The translations under genes were made by a program, and so were the position numbers. Shown here piece by piece: positions 7,705 through 13,150 of a stretch of 13,150 bases of DNA (positions are counted from its first letter, which is position 1; each line of letters starts with the position of its first letter). This DNA is from a virus, in the IMG/VR virus record IMGVR_UViG_3300013101_003214; one strand, written 5' to 3'. The notes under the pieces are model-generated. The model did not search any database. It had not been told where the DNA came from and saw nothing but the letters and a program-made list of their open reading frames with translations.

Positions 7705-7777
7705 GCGGGGACAGCTCCTGGTGGAGCAGGACGGCTCATAACCCTCCGTTGGTGTGGTTCAAATCCCACTCCCGCTA
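7705..7777 (+). tRNA. degenerate tRNA-Met-like element (anticodon loop CTCATAA, CAT at 7737-7739); probably a pseudo-tRNA or leader
   Basis: Acceptor pairs only 6 bp (gcgggg/tcccgc). T-stem is 4 bp with an 8-nt loop (ggTTCAAATCc). Anticodon stem gacgg/ccctc has a C.C mismatch. Confidence 0.3.
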
Positions 7778-8002
7778 CTACGAGAACGACGATGAGACGC
7801 AGCTTACATACCTCAACAGCGACGAAGCCAGCCCCGAGTATCCTCGGCGGTCTGGAATCGTGCGTGCGCTTTGGGGATATGTTGGTCTGCTCGTATTCCC
7901 CCATTAGCCTCGAGCAGACCTGGAATCATAAAGAGGCGGCTACTCGGTAGAACCAAACAAAAACACCGAGAGCCGCCCAGGGAAACCTCGGGCGGTTTTT
8001 TT
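7778..8002 (+). ncRNA. structured non-coding leader between the first tRNA-like gene and tRNA-Tyr: 10-bp hairpin, then an anti-terminator-like hairpin overlapping an intrinsic terminator
   Basis: GGTCTGCTCG (7884-7893) / CGAGCAGACC (7911-7920). GGCGGCT...CTCGG / CCGAG AGCCGCC (7935-7977) shares CCGCC with the terminator stem. No ORF with a plausible start. Confidence 0.35.
7973..8002 (+). terminator. rho-independent terminator inside the tRNA array
   Basis: CCGCCC (7973-7978) / GGGCGG (7990-7995) stem, extendable to about 9 bp, followed by TTTTTTT (7996-8002). Confidence 0.65.
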
Positions 8003-8009
8003 AGTTTCT

Positions 8010-8093
8010 GGGAGTGCTGAGCATAGGTGAGCTCACCTGGCTGTAAACCAGACGCTTCGGCTATTGGTGGTTCAACTCCACCGGCTCCCACCA
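8010..8093 (+). tRNA. tRNA-Tyr (GTA), class II
   Basis: Acceptor gggagtg/ggctccc. D-stem gagc/gctc. Anticodon loop ctGTAaa (8043-8045). 13-nt variable arm. T-arm ggtgg-ttcaact-ccacc. A73 plus encoded CCA. Confidence 0.6.
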
Positions 8094-8146
8094 AGAGCGA
8101 GATCATGAACACGAGGACAAAGGAGAAACTCAAACGGTAGGCACAT

Positions 8147-8221
8147 GCCTCCGTGGTGAAGTGGTTTTCATACCTGGTTTTTACCCAGGCGACGAGGGTT
8201 CAATTCCTTCCGGGGGTACCA
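8147..8221 (+). tRNA. tRNA-Lys (TTT)
   Basis: Acceptor gcctccg/cgggggt with two G-U pairs. Anticodon stem cctgg/ccagg with loop ttTTTac (8180-8182). T-arm gaggg-ttcaatt-ccttc. CCA encoded. Confidence 0.55.
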
Positions 8222-8225
8222 ACAT

Positions 8226-8299
8226 TCGGGAATCGTCTAATGGCAAGACGCCTGGCTCTGGCCCAGGCAATCGGAGTTCGAGTCTCTGTTCCCGAACCA
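8226..8299 (+). tRNA. tRNA-Gln (CTG)
   Basis: U1:A72 acceptor tcgggaa/ttcccga, a bacterial Gln hallmark. D-stem gtct/agac. Anticodon loop ctCTGgc (8258-8260). T-loop ttcgagt. CCA encoded. Confidence 0.6.
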
Positions 8300-8424
8300 G
8301 CTGAATCAGCGCTATCGAGAGTCTCCCTTGAGCATTGATCTCAACAGTCTCTACGCCCTGTGAAGGCGCCTGGCCGAATGCGGCTGGCGATCTGTGACAG
8401 TCGAATAGTTGGATGATGATGCAG

Positions 8425-8447
8425 GGGAGCTCACCCAGCTCCCTTTT
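8425..8447 (+). terminator. terminator-like hairpin plus T4 immediately upstream of tRNA-Phe
   Basis: GGGAGCT (8425-8431) / AGCTCCC (8437-8443) with loop caccc, followed by TTTT (8444-8447). Confidence 0.4.
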
Positions 8448-8523
8448 GCCACTCAAGCTAACCAGGTGGAAGCGCAAGATTGAAGATCTTGAGGGCTCGG
8501 CTCGATACCGAGGGGTGGCACCA
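8448..8523 (+). tRNA. tRNA-Phe (GAA)
   Basis: Acceptor gccactc/gggtggc. Anticodon stem caaga/tcttg with loop ttGAAga (8482-8484). T-arm ctcgg-ctcgata-ccgag (non-canonical loop). A73 plus CCA. Confidence 0.5.
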
Positions 8524-8524
8524 T

Positions 8525-8596
8525 GGGCGATGATCTGGGATCACAACGGTCTCCAAAGCCGTTTAGCGTTGAGTTCGATTCTCCGATTGCCCGCCA
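8525..8596 (+). tRNA. tRNA-Trp (CCA)
   Basis: Acceptor gggcgat/attgccc. Anticodon stem acggt/gccgt with loop ctCCAaa (8553-8555). Compact D-arm. T-loop ttcgatt. G73 plus CCA. Confidence 0.5.
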
Positions 8597-8789
8597 ACTA
8601 TCATGAGTACTTTCTAGGTCTGAGGGGCCGATGCTTATGTACTACGCTCCAGACCTAGTTAGAGCAATACAAGATCCCCCTCTGACGGCTCGTGGAGGTC
8701 TTGGTCTCTGGGTGCTCGGCCAGGTTCGATAGTTTCTTGGCCAGTTCTCGAACATCCTCAATTATTTTGTCCGCTTCACTCATAGTTTT

Positions 8790-8861
8790 CCCTTCGTGGC
8801 GCAACGGGAGCGCAGGCGGCTCTTAACCGCAAGGTTGTAGGTTCGATTCCTACCGGGGGGA
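8790..8861 (+). tRNA. tRNA-Lys (CTT)
   Basis: Acceptor cccttcg/cgggggg. D-stem gcgc/gcgc with loop aacggga. Anticodon loop ctCTTaa (8822-8824). T-arm gtagg-ttcgatt-cctac. No encoded CCA. Confidence 0.55.
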
Positions 8862-8904
8862 CCGAGACTAACGTGCTAGTCACCAGGTAGTGTATAACCT
8901 ACGG

Positions 8905-9306
8905 ATGTATACCACGCATCAAAAGGGGGAGATCGCTCAGCTACATGTTCAGTTACGAGCAACAGAAAAAGGGTTTACCGTATGCTTACCCACTGTCGAG
9001 GCAAGGTACGATTTGATTCTGGACGACAGCGGGACCCTTATCCGAGGGCAAGTCAAGTACGCTGATAGATGGGTAGGCCACGGGGCCATCGAGCTCGACC
9101 TCCGGAGAGACACAAGGAATGTCGGGCGTAAGCGTGCTTACGAGAAGTCCGAGGTAGACGCTGTCATTATTTACGTTCCCAGGGAAGACTTAATCCTTTG
9201 GCTTCCGCCAAAAGTGTTTCACAAAAAGAAGACAATTAACATTCGATTCAGTCCAGCGAAAAACGGAACAAAGACGGTATTCGACGCAAAGGACTTTATC
9301 TGGTGA
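8905..9306 (+). CDS. PD-(D/E)XK-family nuclease, Holliday-junction-resolvase (Hjc)-like, about 133 aa (alternative GTG start at 8890)
   Basis: KGEIAQLHVQLRATEKGFTVCL...ARYDLILDDSGTLIRGQVKYA parallels the Hjc core E...GFxVxR...DLIA...IEVK. Only plus-strand CDS. Inserted between tRNA-Lys and an orphan tRNA 3' fragment. No clear SD. Confidence 0.5.
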   Translation: MYTTHQKGEIAQLHVQLRATEKGFTVCLPTVEARYDLILDDSGTLIRGQVKYADRWVGHGAIELDLRRDTRNVGRKRAYEKSEVDAVIIYVPREDLILWLPPKVFHKKKTINIRFSPAKNGTKTVFDAKDFIW

Positions 9307-9345
9307 CCCAGTTAGTTGGAGGTTCGAATCCTCTCAGGGGTACCA
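9302..9345 (+). pseudogene. orphan tRNA 3' fragment: T-arm plus 3' acceptor strand plus A plus CCA, with no 5' partner
   Basis: ggagg-ttcgaat-cctct (9318-9334), then caggggt a cca. No complementary 5' acceptor strand was found within 120 nt upstream or upstream of the nuclease ORF. Confidence 0.4.
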
Positions 9346-12460: not shown

Positions 12461-12468
12461 CAACAACT

Positions 12469-12539
12469 GATCTCGTCAGCTAACGGTAGGCTACAAGATT
12501 CTCAATCTTGCAATGGGGGTCCGACTCCCCTCGAGATCG
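12469..12539 (+). tRNA. tRNA-Glu (CTC)
   Basis: Perfect acceptor gatctcg/cgagatc. D-stem agct/ggct with loop aacggta. Anticodon stem caaga/tcttg with loop ttCTCaa (12501-12503). T-arm ggggg-tccgact-cccct. G73. Confidence 0.6.
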
Positions 12540-12543
12540 CTAC

Positions 12544-12615
12544 GCTCGATTAGCTCAGCAGAAGAGCGCTGCTTCGACAAAGCAGAGGCCGGAGGTGCGA
12601 TTCCTCCATCGAGCA
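12544..12615 (+). tRNA. tRNA-Val (GAC)
   Basis: Perfect acceptor gctcgat/atcgagc. T8A9. D-stem gctc/gagc. Anticodon stem ctgct/agcag with loop tcGACaa (12576-12578, C33). T-arm ggagg-tgcgatt-cctcc. A73. Confidence 0.55.
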
Positions 12616-12624
12616 CCGATCACT

Positions 12625-12695
12625 GCCTTTGTAGTTCAACGGAAGAACGCTTGCTTGGTACGCAGGAAACGGGAGTTCGACTCTCCCCTTAGGCT
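12625..12695 (+). tRNA. tRNA-Thr (GGT)
   Basis: Acceptor gcctttg/cttaggc with two U.U. T8A9. D-stem gttc/gaac with loop aacggaa. Anticodon stem cttgc/gcagg with loop ttGGTac (12657-12659). T-arm gggag-ttcgact-ctccc. U73. Confidence 0.5.
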
Positions 12696-12699
12696 CTAT

Positions 12700-12771
12700 G
12701 GCTCTGCCGGTGGACCCGGGCCGCGGACTACGAATTCGCGAGAGAAGGTTCGATCCCTTCTAGAGTCACCA
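12700..12771 (+). tRNA. tRNA-Arg (ACG)
   Basis: Acceptor ggctctg/tagagtc. D-stem ccgg/ccgg. Anticodon stem gcgga/ttcgc with loop ctACGaa (12730-12732). T-arm gaagg-ttcgatc-ccttc. A73 plus CCA. Confidence 0.55.
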
Positions 12772-12843
12772 GTCACTGCGGGTGGAACCCGGCTTGAATC
12801 TCCGAAGTTCGATGAAGGCGTTCGATTCGCCTCAGTGGCACCA
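12772..12843 (+). tRNA. tRNA-Arg (CCG), tentative anticodon assignment
   Basis: Acceptor gtcactg/cagtggc. T-arm aggcg-ttcgatt-cgcct. A73 plus CCA. Best anticodon fold is tgaat/gttcg with loop ctCCGaa (12802-12804), which has two G-U pairs. Confidence 0.4.
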
Positions 12844-12844
12844 T

Positions 12845-12921
12845 GCCTGCGTGTCCTAATTGGAACGGGAGCACGGCTTAGACCCGTGTGTTTGTCGGTT
12901 CGAATCCGACCGCAGGCACCA
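12845..12921 (+). tRNA. tRNA with Leu anticodon TAG but only a 5-nt variable loop (class-I architecture)
   Basis: Perfect acceptor gcctgcg/cgcaggc. D-stem tcct/ggga. Anticodon stem cacgg/ccgtg with loop ctTAGac (12879-12881). T-arm gtcgg-ttcgaat-ccgac. A73 plus CCA. Confidence 0.55.
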
Positions 12922-12922
12922 T

Positions 12923-12999
12923 ACCTGGGTATTCCAACTGGCAGAGAAGGTGCCTTGAGGAGGCATACAGTGCGGGTTCGACTCCCGTCCCAGGTACCA
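12923..12999 (+). tRNA. tRNA with Leu anticodon GAG, short variable loop
   Basis: Perfect acceptor acctggg/cccaggt. T8A9. Anticodon stem gtgcc/ggcat with loop ttGAGga (12957-12959). T-arm gcggg-ttcgact-cccgt. A73 plus CCA. Confidence 0.55.
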
Positions 13000-13000
13000 T

Positions 13001-13077
13001 GGGGACATGATCTAACTGGAATAGATGCTGGCCTTAAAAGCCGGTTTTTGAGGGTTCGAGTCCCTCTGTCCCTACCA
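13001..13077 (+). tRNA. tRNA with Leu anticodon TAA, short variable loop
   Basis: Acceptor ggggaca/tgtccct. D-stem atct/agat. Anticodon stem ctggc/gccgg with loop ctTAAaa (13035-13037). T-arm gaggg-ttcgagt-ccctc. A73 plus CCA. Confidence 0.55.
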
Positions 13078-13078
13078 T

Positions 13079-13150
13079 GCCGGGGGTCGTAGACTGCGCG
13101 GGGCGTCCAAAGTCCTGCGTCCAGGTGAGACCCCTGGCAAGGCGCCAAGG
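13079..13150 (+). tRNA. probable 5' part of a further (class II?) tRNA truncated by the window edge
   Basis: Starts gccgggg right after the preceding CCA. Contains hairpin ccagg-tgagacc-cctgg (13121-13137). The 3' end lies outside the window. Confidence 0.25.

Follow-up and report, generated by a model that had tools for sequence, protein, structure and literature searches.

The 13,150-nucleotide (nt) viral contig IMGVR_UViG_3300013101_003214 of the IMG/VR collection, referred to at its full length as the window, carries an array of transfer RNA (tRNA) genes at positions 7704-13077 of its plus strand. The array consists of 35 tRNA genes with 34 different anticodons, representing all 20 amino acids and including an initiator-like tRNA, and tRNA gene sequence accounts for 49% of the 5,374-nt span. 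The window comprises the whole contig, and all three assemblies of the sequence end at base 13150. A preliminary description, made from the letters of the DNA, had proposed an array of about 35 tRNA genes complete for the 20 amino acids. Both proposals were upheld by the combination of ARAGORN, Rfam, a covariance model built from the array itself and comparison with a syntenic relative, with His, Tyr, Trp and Arg represented through non-canonical genes alone. The anticodons listed in that description were also recovered, except that CAT occurs in two genes, so that 35 genes have 34 anticodons between them. The gene at its start coordinate (7705) is not tRNA-Tyr: it has a CAT anticodon and is initiator-like, and tRNA-Tyr (GTA) begins at 8010.

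ARAGORN was run at default settings and then with the threshold relaxed to 90%. The default run gave 27 tRNA calls. All lie on the plus strand, from 8147 to 13077, and the 7.7-kb coding part of the window received no call. Relaxation added the initiator-like tRNA (CAT), Tyr (GTA), Trp (CCA), Ala (TGC), Val (TAC), Arg (ACG) and Arg (CCG), with no false call on either strand of the coding part (1-7700). These seven genes show reduced D arms or unusual T loops. The general Rfam tRNA model (RF00005, gathering score 29 bits) passed 25 genes in a scan of the whole window and a 26th, Asn, in a narrower scan, with scores of 35.9-67.2 bits. Beyond these 26, the default ARAGORN run supports two more genes, Ser (CGA) and His. 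A further covariance model was trained solely on 25 canonical class I tRNAs of the array and searched against both strands of the window with no filters, the best match in the coding part (7.8 bits) giving the noise ceiling. When the calls were scored with the Rfam and the array-trained models, most were kept (26 of 35 by RF00005) and no amino acid was lost from the set.

Some ARAGORN output was set aside. A Ser (CGA) call at 9557-9646 is a chimera: it joins tRNA-Ala (GGC), located by Rfam at 9538-9608 (61 bits), to the T arm that follows. An Asn call at 10539-10628 was rejected for its overlap with tRNA-Gly (GCC), and a minus-strand Ala call at 12527-12615 and all intron-containing calls were rejected as artefacts. 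The registers assigned to both Arg genes were shifted, and the corrected spans are 12700-12771 and 12772-12843. The 26 genes that pass RF00005 are listed below with ARAGORN and Rfam scores and, where given, a comparison with the counterpart in the relative.

8147..8221, plus strand: tRNA-Lys (TTT); ARAGORN 114, Rfam 58.2 bits; counterpart with 2 compensatory pairs
8226..8299, plus strand: tRNA-Gln (CTG), U1:A72; ARAGORN 120.9, Rfam 57.5 bits; counterpart with 8 compensatory pairs
8448..8523, plus strand: tRNA-Phe (GAA); ARAGORN 102.4, Rfam 44.8 bits; counterpart with 10 compensatory pairs
8790..8861, plus strand: tRNA-Lys (CTT); ARAGORN 118, Rfam 58.9 bits; counterpart with 7 compensatory pairs
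9347..9422, plus strand: tRNA-Asp (GTC); ARAGORN 109.9, Rfam 45.9 bits; counterpart with 7 compensatory pairs
9538..9608, plus strand: tRNA-Ala (GGC), G3:U70, A73 followed by CTA; Rfam 61.2 bits; counterpart in contig L006 61.6 bits
9874..9960, plus strand: tRNA-Ser (GCT), long variable arm; ARAGORN 111.7, Rfam 44.5 bits
9962..10036, plus strand: tRNA-Glu (TTC); ARAGORN 118.9, Rfam 55.6 bits
10322..10396, plus strand: tRNA-Pro (TGG), C1:G72; ARAGORN 122.4, Rfam 55.1 bits; 70 of 75 nt identical to counterpart
10436..10513, plus strand: tRNA-Pro (GGG), C1:G72; ARAGORN 116.5, Rfam 56.2 bits
10618..10691, plus strand: tRNA-Gly (GCC); ARAGORN 114.6, Rfam 55.4 bits; 7 compensatory pairs
10693..10766, plus strand: tRNA-Cys (GCA), U73; ARAGORN 113.1, Rfam 62.1 bits
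10768..10842, plus strand: tRNA-Ile (TAT), reads AUA; ARAGORN 119, Rfam 67.2 bits; 6 compensatory pairs
10844..10916, plus strand: tRNA-Met (CAT), probably elongator, reduced D arm; ARAGORN 103.4, Rfam 36.5 bits
10997..11070, plus strand: tRNA-Ile (GAT); ARAGORN 98.4, Rfam 49.4 bits
11221..11291, plus strand: tRNA-Gly (TCC); ARAGORN 118.5, Rfam 64.1 bits
11988..12058, plus strand: tRNA-Thr (CGT); ARAGORN 123, Rfam 61.8 bits
12229..12302, plus strand: tRNA-Gln (TTG), U1:A72; ARAGORN 111.1, Rfam 51 bits
12310..12383, plus strand: tRNA-Thr (TGT); ARAGORN 112.9, Rfam 37.9 bits
12388..12460, plus strand: tRNA-Asn (GTT); ARAGORN 106.9, Rfam 35.9 bits
12469..12539, plus strand: tRNA-Glu (CTC); ARAGORN 106.7, Rfam 53.6 bits; 10 compensatory pairs
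12544..12615, plus strand: tRNA-Val (GAC); ARAGORN 109.3, Rfam 62.3 bits
12625..12695, plus strand: tRNA-Thr (GGT); ARAGORN 110.9, Rfam 57.2 bits
12845..12921, plus strand: tRNA-Leu (TAG), 77 nt, variable loop of 4-5 nt, A73; ARAGORN 118.3, Rfam 57.8 bits
12923..12999, plus strand: tRNA-Leu (GAG), 77 nt, short variable loop, A73; ARAGORN 114.3, Rfam 47.4 bits
13001..13077, plus strand: tRNA-Leu (TAA), 77 nt, short variable loop, A73; ARAGORN 115.1, Rfam 58.1 bits

The relative was reached through an 885-residue vault-like protein encoded in the window, which led to a 56.7-kb contig in ENA (L006/L007) with 42% protein identity. L006 carries a tRNA array in the same gene order that diverges from the vault-like gene, and a transfer-messenger RNA (tmRNA) and a thymidylate kinase gene lie downstream. 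A 22-mer from the D arm of tRNA-His found JGI contig L008, which overlaps the end of L006 and continues the array. Across L006 and L008, 31 of the 35 window genes have a counterpart with the same anticodon and in the same order. The proteins of the two phages are about 42-45% identical, and the tRNAs differ from their positional counterparts by 0-10 compensatory pairs each with few broken pairs. The tRNA genes of the array are real, and change in their stems is compensatory. With so many anticodons recurring in order in a second phage that is highly divergent, structure and function can be read from such changes. Because L008 carries four further tRNAs, Ser (TGA), Ser (GGA), Leu (CAA) and Leu (CAG), past the point matching the window end, the window array may have been cut short and may run on past the end of the contig.

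Nine of the 35 genes do not reach the RF00005 threshold. Four of these, the initiator-like tRNA, Tyr, Trp and Ser (CGA), match the Rfam selenocysteine tRNA family (tRNA-Sec) instead with 24-34 bits, and the remaining five, Ala (TGC), Val (TAC), His, Arg (ACG) and Arg (CCG), gave no Rfam match at E up to 10.

7704..7777, plus strand: tRNA (CAT), initiator-like, U1xU72 mismatch, A73, no CCA; ARAGORN 97.9 (relaxed), array model 15.8 bits (E 0.003), tRNA-Sec 24.4 bits
8010..8093, plus strand: tRNA-Tyr (GTA), 13-nt variable region, A73, CCA; ARAGORN 99.1, tRNA-Sec 34.2 bits, array model 20.2 bits (E 1e-4)
8525..8596, plus strand: tRNA-Trp (CCA), minimal D arm (4-bp stem, 3-nt loop), G73, CCA; ARAGORN 91.6, array model 23.2 bits (E 2e-5), tRNA-Sec 25.1 bits
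9785..9867, plus strand: tRNA-Ser (CGA), long variable arm, G73; ARAGORN 104.9, tRNA-Sec 27.7 bits; counterpart with 4 compensatory and 0 broken pairs
10106..10174, plus strand: tRNA-Ala (TGC), 4-bp D stem, 4-nt loop AAGG, T loop AGCGTTA, G3:U70, A73; ARAGORN 90.4, array model 8.6 bits
10918..10990, plus strand: tRNA-Val (TAC), 3-bp D stem, 6-nt D loop; ARAGORN 98.6, array model 22.1 bits (E 4e-5)
11078..11151, plus strand: tRNA-His (GTG), G-1 opposite C73, T loop AGCATTA, D loop without GG; ARAGORN 104.4, array model 19.7 bits (E 2e-4)
12700..12771, plus strand: tRNA-Arg (ACG), reduced D arm (1-nt link, 3-bp stem, loop TGGAC), A73, CCA; ARAGORN 95.4 (shifted register), array model 24.5 bits (E 6e-6)
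12772..12843, plus strand: tRNA-Arg (CCG), same reduced D arm, A73, CCA; ARAGORN 96.8 (shifted register), array model 15.9 bits (E 0.003)

The properties expected of functional genes, namely a cloverleaf with compensatory changes, a retained anticodon and a score above noise, were found for these genes, the exceptions being the 8.6 bits of tRNA-Ala (TGC), the partial model match of tRNA-Ser (CGA), the near identity of tRNA-Val (TAC) with its counterpart and the weak, structurally different counterpart of tRNA-Tyr. A U1xU72-type mismatch, A73 and three G-C pairs beside the anticodon loop are hallmarks of initiator tRNAs. The first CAT tRNA is called initiator-like because it has the mismatch and A73, and because its counterpart in L006 has the three G-C pairs; the counterpart also encodes CCA and differs by 4 compensatory pairs. 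The counterpart of tRNA-Trp shows 3 compensatory pairs, among them pairs of the D stem (gatc/gatc in one phage, gttc/gaac in the other). Reduced D arms occur in Trp, Arg (ACG), Arg (CCG), Val (TAC) and the second Met. The corrected folds of both Arg tRNAs have 20 of 20 pairs in both phages, with 7 compensatory pairs in Arg (ACG) and 8 in Arg (CCG), and no similarity to either was detected in the phage collection. tRNA-Val (TAC) is identical to its counterpart at 67 of 73 nt (92%). With tRNA-Ser (CGA), the array-trained model matched the T arm alone, as a class I model excludes tRNAs with a long arm.

tRNA-His and tRNA-Ala (TGC) have in common a T loop of AGCATTA or AGCGTTA and a D loop without GG, and in both phages these loops are kept but the stems differ, a pattern that points to an elbow of different architecture. 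In the His counterpart the D arm and T loop are identical and the stems carry 4 compensatory and 0 broken pairs; in the phage collection, tRNA-His gave just one partial match at chance level (E 0.2), inside a protein-coding gene. tRNA-Ala (TGC) is the weakest call of the array, with an array-model score at noise level. Its counterpart in L006 (ARAGORN 92) keeps G3:U70, encodes CCA and shows 2 compensatory pairs, and Ala decoding is also served by tRNA-Ala (GGC). Among the four amino acids that depend on non-canonical genes, Tyr is the least secure, because its counterpart in L006 is a shorter, structurally different form of 71 nt with a weak score of 84.

Identity elements were read from the ARAGORN folds and the sequence. 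Those named in the preliminary description are all present: G3:U70 in both Ala tRNAs, U73 in Cys, G-1 (11078) opposite C73 in His, C1:G72 in both Pro and U1:A72 in both Gln. To these can be added A73 in all Leu tRNAs and G73 in Trp, so that acceptor-end identity elements are in place for Ala, Cys, His, Pro, Gln, Leu and Trp. In both Arg tRNAs the D-loop sequence is TGGAN, which would preserve G18, G19 and A20 (standard tRNA numbering).

The long variable arm is missing from every Leu tRNA, in the window (three genes, 12845-13077) as in L008 (four genes, 1053-1436). They are 76-77 nt long with a variable loop of 4-5 nt. The Ser tRNAs retain the long arm, and the Tyr tRNA of the window retains its 13-nt variable region. 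The long arm is dispensable for bacterial leucyl-tRNA synthetase and needed by seryl-tRNA synthetase, and this difference would explain why it has been lost in Leu alone. Armless Leu tRNAs are not unique to this array. Short tRNA-Leu genes of 74-77 nt are annotated in three cultured phages, namely Leu (TAA) in STG2, Leu (TAG) in PVP-SE1 and Leu (GAG) in Mycobacterium phage Phabba, and Leu (TAA) of the window is 76% identical to tRNA-Leu (TAA) of the T5-like Salmonella phage STG2 by blastn and annotation. In the library searched, no paper describing short-arm tRNA-Leu in phages was found.

With standard wobble, the array can read 56 of the 61 sense codons. Codon usage was counted over the 2,407 codons of the eleven open reading frames (ORFs) in the window, in which the G+C content of third codon positions (GC3) is 74%. 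The commonest codons, such as CTC, GCC, ATC and AAG, are served as well as the rare ones, which argues against simple supplementation of rare codons.

Between tRNA-Ala (GGC) and tRNA-Ser (CGA) lie two units in which the 3' half of a tRNA (anticodon-stem 3' strand, variable loop, T arm and acceptor 3' strand) stands ahead of the 5' half (acceptor 5' strand, D arm and anticodon-stem 5' strand).

9613..9700, plus strand: permuted unit 1; 3' half 9613-9646, 24-nt spacer, 5' half 9671-9700; anticodon-type stem 5 of 5 pairs, acceptor 5 of 7
9711..9781, plus strand: permuted unit 2; 3' half 9711-9744, 7-nt link closing a 9-bp acceptor hairpin, 5' half 9752-9781

As a circular permutation opened in the anticodon loop, unit 2 forms all four helices perfectly. 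The relative has one such unit (L006 about 1629-1715, minus strand), with 5 of 5 and 6 of 7 pairs and an acceptor 3' strand followed by G-CCA. When the three copies were aligned to the permuted cloverleaf, 95% of cells were paired and 12 of 21 pairs had changed on both sides; none of 500 shuffles was as good, and slid controls scored much lower. Of the 12 pairs joining the halves, 3 have both bases changed between the counterpart units of the window and L006 and still pair. With the halves rejoined in normal order by an artificial loop, ARAGORN scored unit 2 at 121, the L006 unit at 113 and unit 1 at 98. The 5' halves resemble tRNA-Gln, and the units are derived from it.

Other readings of the units were weighed. 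The 5' half of unit 1 and the 3' half of unit 2 (9671-9745) compete as a tRNA in normal order, to which the array-trained model gives 28.7 bits, but which has no anticodon stem and requires a bulged acceptor. The units are also possibly decaying remnants of tandem tRNA-Gln genes, and much of the strong covariation comes from unit 2, where descent alone could account for the match between the halves. Like the tRNA-like module of YrlA, a Y RNA-like RNA of bacteria and phages, the units hold a T arm, an acceptor hairpin, a D arm and a closing stem at the place of the anticodon stem, in that order, and the YrlA family (RF02553) aligns to them far below its 69-bit threshold (19.5 bits at 9717-9775 of the window, 16.1 bits at 1617-1729 of L006). 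Unlike YrlA, they have no long Ro60-binding helix, as the flanks are unpaired beyond the 5-bp stem and tRNA genes lie 3-10 nt away, and no TROVE (Ro60) domain was found among the window proteins or the genes listed for L006. In YrlA of M. smegmatis, which has a 7-bp acceptor stem, RNase P cuts the RNA and CCA is added (Chen et al. 2014, PMC4201824), which makes processing of the permuted units testable.

The units also resemble circularly permuted tRNA genes, in which the 3' half precedes the 5' half and together they form all four helices, and two-piece tmRNA, given the acceptor 3' strand, G-CCA and short spacer of the relative's unit. Permuted tRNA genes occur in the red alga Cyanidioschyzon merolae and some archaea, and in two-piece, permuted tmRNA the acceptor piece has an acceptor 3' strand, CCA and a short spacer. 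To our knowledge, no permuted tRNA gene has been reported in bacteria or phages. The Rfam tmRNA_permuted model matched the units weakly (21.8 bits). They differ from both systems in having no convincing anticodon loop, no bulge-helix-bulge pairing of the flanks and no tag reading frame. The flanks of unit 1 and of the relative's unit yield no 7-nt loop with U33 and a purine at 37, in unit 2 a speculative GTT+TTGA join alone gives a usable anticodon loop, and leader-trailer pairing is absent. The permuted units are read here as tRNA-derived RNAs kept by selection. That the array carries a whole class of such RNAs, distinct from ordinary tRNAs and seen most clearly in these units, is put forward tentatively and is on balance doubtful. 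On the boldest version of this proposal, RNase P and 3' trimming would open the acceptor hairpin, and the products would be tRNAs in two pieces or joined again by ligation, or tRNA mimics that interact with host enzymes for tRNA handling or RNA repair. If true, these would be the first permuted tRNA-type genes in a phage, and the tRNA-like RNA at 9424-9533 (below) and the AGCATTA T loop of His and Ala (TGC) would join the same re-engineered tRNA repertoire. If processed, the units would extend permuted or split tRNA biology to phages, or represent a minimal YrlA-like mimic.

The preliminary description had stated that most genes encode CCA, and 24 of the 35 do; the 3' ends without CCA include seven of the form N-CTA and three of the form N-CCG. 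Gaps of only 0-7 nt between neighbours are frequent, and in the runs 10618-10990 and 12845-13077 a single nucleotide separates each CCA from the gene that follows. Such close spacing and 1-nt gaps after CCA would fit polycistronic transcripts cut by RNase P. Two putative transcription signals flank the first tRNA gene.

7665..7691, plus strand: candidate promoter (TTGACC, 15 nt, TGgTACAAT), found by eye just 5' of the first tRNA
7973..8002, plus strand: hairpin followed by seven T, resembling an intrinsic terminator; equivalent hairpin and T run in L006

The candidate promoter was missed by a consensus scan because of its 15-nt spacer, and the scan for promoter and terminator consensus sequences was uninformative. 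About 200 nt of non-coding sequence following the initiator-like tRNA are conserved in both phages (7778-8002; L006 about 2640-2911, minus strand), with the terminator-like hairpin at the end, and this stretch may be a small RNA or a separate transcription unit.

Further structured RNAs and inserted sequences interrupt the array.

8890..9306, plus strand: PD-(D/E)XK endonuclease gene (PF11645); Pfam 4.2e-23, phrog_5018
9308..9345, plus strand: orphan tRNA 3' fragment (T arm, acceptor 3' strand, ACCA); best local match tRNA-Lys (CTT), array model 18.3 bits
9424..9533, plus strand: 110-nt tRNA-like RNA with acceptor stem, D arm and T arm (loop AGCATAG), no CCA
10179..10312, plus strand: strongly structured, multi-branched RNA with an orphan T arm (10212-10228); -53.5 kcal/mol, z = -5.1, 0 of 200 shuffles as stable
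11292..11966, minus strand: endolysin-like gene (peptidoglycan-binding and VanY-like peptidase domains); PG_binding_1 2.5e-12, VanY 1.1e-3 (weak), PHROG endolysin families

In the RNA at 9424-9533 a three-way junction, which includes a GNRA-capped hairpin, takes the place of the anticodon arm. A homologue lies at a different position of the relative's array (L006 899-1023, minus strand), and the consensus fold of the two has 28 pairs, 5 of them compensatory, with acceptor and T stems among these. It matched no Rfam family, and an IMG/VR scan with its hairpin motif gave no match. The motif, GGGAGCCGCAAGGCGT...ACCACC, has matches in a stretch conserved among seven Chloroflexi genomes (L014, L016-L021) and in one Marinobacter. 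These were rejected as evidence of a host, as the flanks are unrelated, no Rfam family or tRNA is present there and about 2 independent matches are expected by chance. Within the long closing stem of the RNA at 10179-10312 are a CCA-loop hairpin and hairpins resembling a D arm and an anticodon arm (loop TTGATAC), and the array-trained model gave partial matches. This RNA has no homologue in L006, and a reading as a permuted class II tRNA was rejected when the rearranged sequence received no ARAGORN call. A long and very stable hairpin (13079-13138, z = -3.8) with a 7-nt loop, GUCCAAA, takes up the final 60-70 nt of the contig. In the relative, an extra cloverleaf between His and Gly (TCC) (L008 130-209, z = -2.7) has a TCCA end, an 8-nt T loop and an anticodon loop, CATCCGC, without U33; it receives no ARAGORN call, and the matching place in the window holds only a 62-nt two-hairpin structure.

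The PD-(D/E)XK gene is absent from L006, where Lys (CTT) and Asp are 5 nt apart, and the endolysin-like gene is absent from L008, where Gly (TCC) and Thr (CGT) are 1 nt apart. The two genes are lineage-specific insertions, with the array as a landing site for mobile or extra genes. Endonuclease genes also occur among the tRNAs of T4 and T5. The tRNA-fMet group I intron that carries I-Ssp6803I offers a comparison case for the endonuclease gene. The possibility that a group I intron surrounds the endonuclease gene was discarded, as 7400-13150 gave no Intron_gpI match at E up to 10 and there is no 5' exon; the orphan fragment that follows the gene at 9308-9345, a duplicated tRNA 3' end resembling Lys (CTT), has no nearby 5' partner or 5' exon able to pair with it. 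A possible 42-codon ORF (8655-8783, minus strand) was seen by eye in the 193-nt gap between Trp and Lys (CTT), a gap that is absent from the relative (2 nt).

The coding part of the window places the array in a phage-like context. Besides the genes within the array, the window encodes thymidylate kinase, an HNH endonuclease, a GroES-like protein, the vault-like protein and a tmRNA.

2274..2605 (ARAGORN 2277-2605), minus strand: tmRNA gene, tag ANDNIVAAPLAVAA; RF00023 115 bits, ARAGORN
4636-7293, minus strand: vault-like protein, 885 residues; major-vault-protein shoulder domain, 4.6e-21

The HNH, GroES, endolysin-like and thymidylate kinase genes match PHROG families. The tmRNA lies 5 kb from the array and belongs to the same translation-related gene set, and in L006 a tmRNA (8419-8778, tag ANDNVDVAPLAIAA) has the same relative position. 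L006 also carries a run of small unannotated ORFs together with AAA_24 and PD-(D/E)XK recombination genes. The vault-like protein has no PHROG family match and more than 1,000 homologues (best 43% identity), in phage-like contigs, metagenomic phages of 462-735 kb and Myxococcota-type bacterial contigs; among annotated phages it matches only LR756500, LR756501 and LR756503 (462-735 kb, 36-38% identity). No tRNAs were found in L009 and L010, two phage-like contigs with a vault-like gene, or in the bacterial contig L005. The small protein adjoining the array found no homologue but itself. A nucleotide search with the whole window against 50,697 phage records gave no match, nor did IMG/VR scans with a 44-mer of tRNA-Leu, a 23-mer of the His D arm, a 34-mer of tRNA-Pro (TGG) and the vault-like protein. 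The phage-like character seen in the preliminary description is supported by the tmRNA, the HNH, GroES, thymidylate kinase and endolysin-like genes and the synteny with L006.

The array is probably, with appreciable room for doubt, the tRNA cluster that gives a large tailed phage, uncultured and distantly related to the metagenomic huge phages, its own nearly complete decoding set. Its genes would be transcribed in a few polycistronic units, which host RNase P and 3' trimming enzymes would cut; the host CCA-adding enzyme would complete the 11 genes without CCA and host synthetases would charge the phage tRNAs. With these tRNAs, translation of phage mRNA would continue despite degradation of host tRNAs, their cleavage by defence nucleases or a poor fit between them and the codon demand of the phage. 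The substantial independence from host tRNA pools suggested in the preliminary description is plausible given a near-complete set, but the tRNAs would depend on the host for synthetases, RNase P and the enzymes of CCA addition and modification. Several observations weigh against this interpretation. Within the window UCU, UCC, UCA, AGA and AGG, 3.7% of codons, are unread. For His, Tyr, Trp and Arg, every tRNA scores below the general Rfam threshold. The terminator-like hairpin after the first tRNA and the gene on the opposite strand mean that the array is not a single operon. The 13-kb contig has no capsid or terminase gene, and the 16 kb read from the relative hold no gene for virion or packaging functions, and because of the former the term phage rests on context and synteny; a phage origin is well supported by these, and not proven.

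A role in counter-defence, in which the set replaces host tRNAs cleaved by anticodon nucleases or other tRNA-targeting defences and the phage copies are poor substrates, is unlikely to be the main selected function but deserves serious consideration. The idea was raised in the preliminary description, is plausible and agrees with a published hypothesis, for which there are experiments on other phages (PMC10264068, PMC11555353). The breadth of the set, at 56 of 61 codons, fits replacement better than fine-tuning, and the odd architectures kept in two phages (the D arms of Trp, Arg and Val (TAC), the T loops of His and Ala (TGC), and the missing long arm of every Leu) could alter nuclease recognition with synthetase identity kept. 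However, no change here was linked to any nuclease, no defence or anti-defence gene was identified in the window, and this role is compatible with, and not exclusive of, the decoding set proposed above. Compensation for codons used more by the phage than by its host, the classical explanation of phage tRNAs (discussed in PMC10264068, PMC13015707), seems improbable here. The set does include Leu (TAA), Ile (TAT) and Lys (TTT), for codons rare in a GC-rich background, but nearly all codons are covered, including the commonest ones that a GC-rich host would supply (GC3 74%), and a rare-codon supplement needs neither 34 anticodons nor an initiator. It is very improbable that the DNA is not from a phage and that the array is a bacterial tRNA array unit of the type known from Mycobacterium genomes. 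Such units are known from chromosomes as well as plasmids (PMC5966550, PMC12803027), homologues of the vault-like protein are numerous in bacteria, as on the Myxococcota-type contig L005, and the window holds no virion gene. Against this, the gene content of the syntenic L006 is typical of phages, four genes of the window match PHROG families, and the phage-borne tmRNA and the short type of tRNA-Leu are shared with cultured phages.

Read as the decoding set of a large phage, the array itself adds one more case to the known tRNA sets of huge phages. Large tRNA sets are among the main ways in which big phages take over translation, and another array adds little alone. The most interesting content is the non-canonical tRNAs and the tRNA-like RNAs conserved in a second phage. 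The array shows which features a phage tRNA can lose with synthetase identity elements kept: Leu does without its long arm, Trp, Arg and Val without much of the D arm, and His and Ala without the standard T loop.

Among known systems, the huge phages carry up to 67 tRNAs as well as tmRNAs, and their tRNAs are distinct from those of the host (Al-Shayeb et al. 2020, PMC7162821). The window resembles them in its dozens of tRNAs, its tmRNA and its translation-related genes, and the matches of the vault-like protein come from that GenBank series. It differs in the placement of the tRNAs: LR756500 and LR756501 carry no tRNA closer than 20 kb to their vault-like gene, but in the window about 100 nt separate the start of the array from the divergently transcribed gene beside the vault-like gene. 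Cultured large phages, including T5-like phages, Phabba and its relatives and the Seunavirus PVP-SE1, share with the window tRNA clusters on one strand and short tRNA-Leu. In Phabba, however, short and long Leu tRNAs are mixed, while those of the window and its relative are all short.

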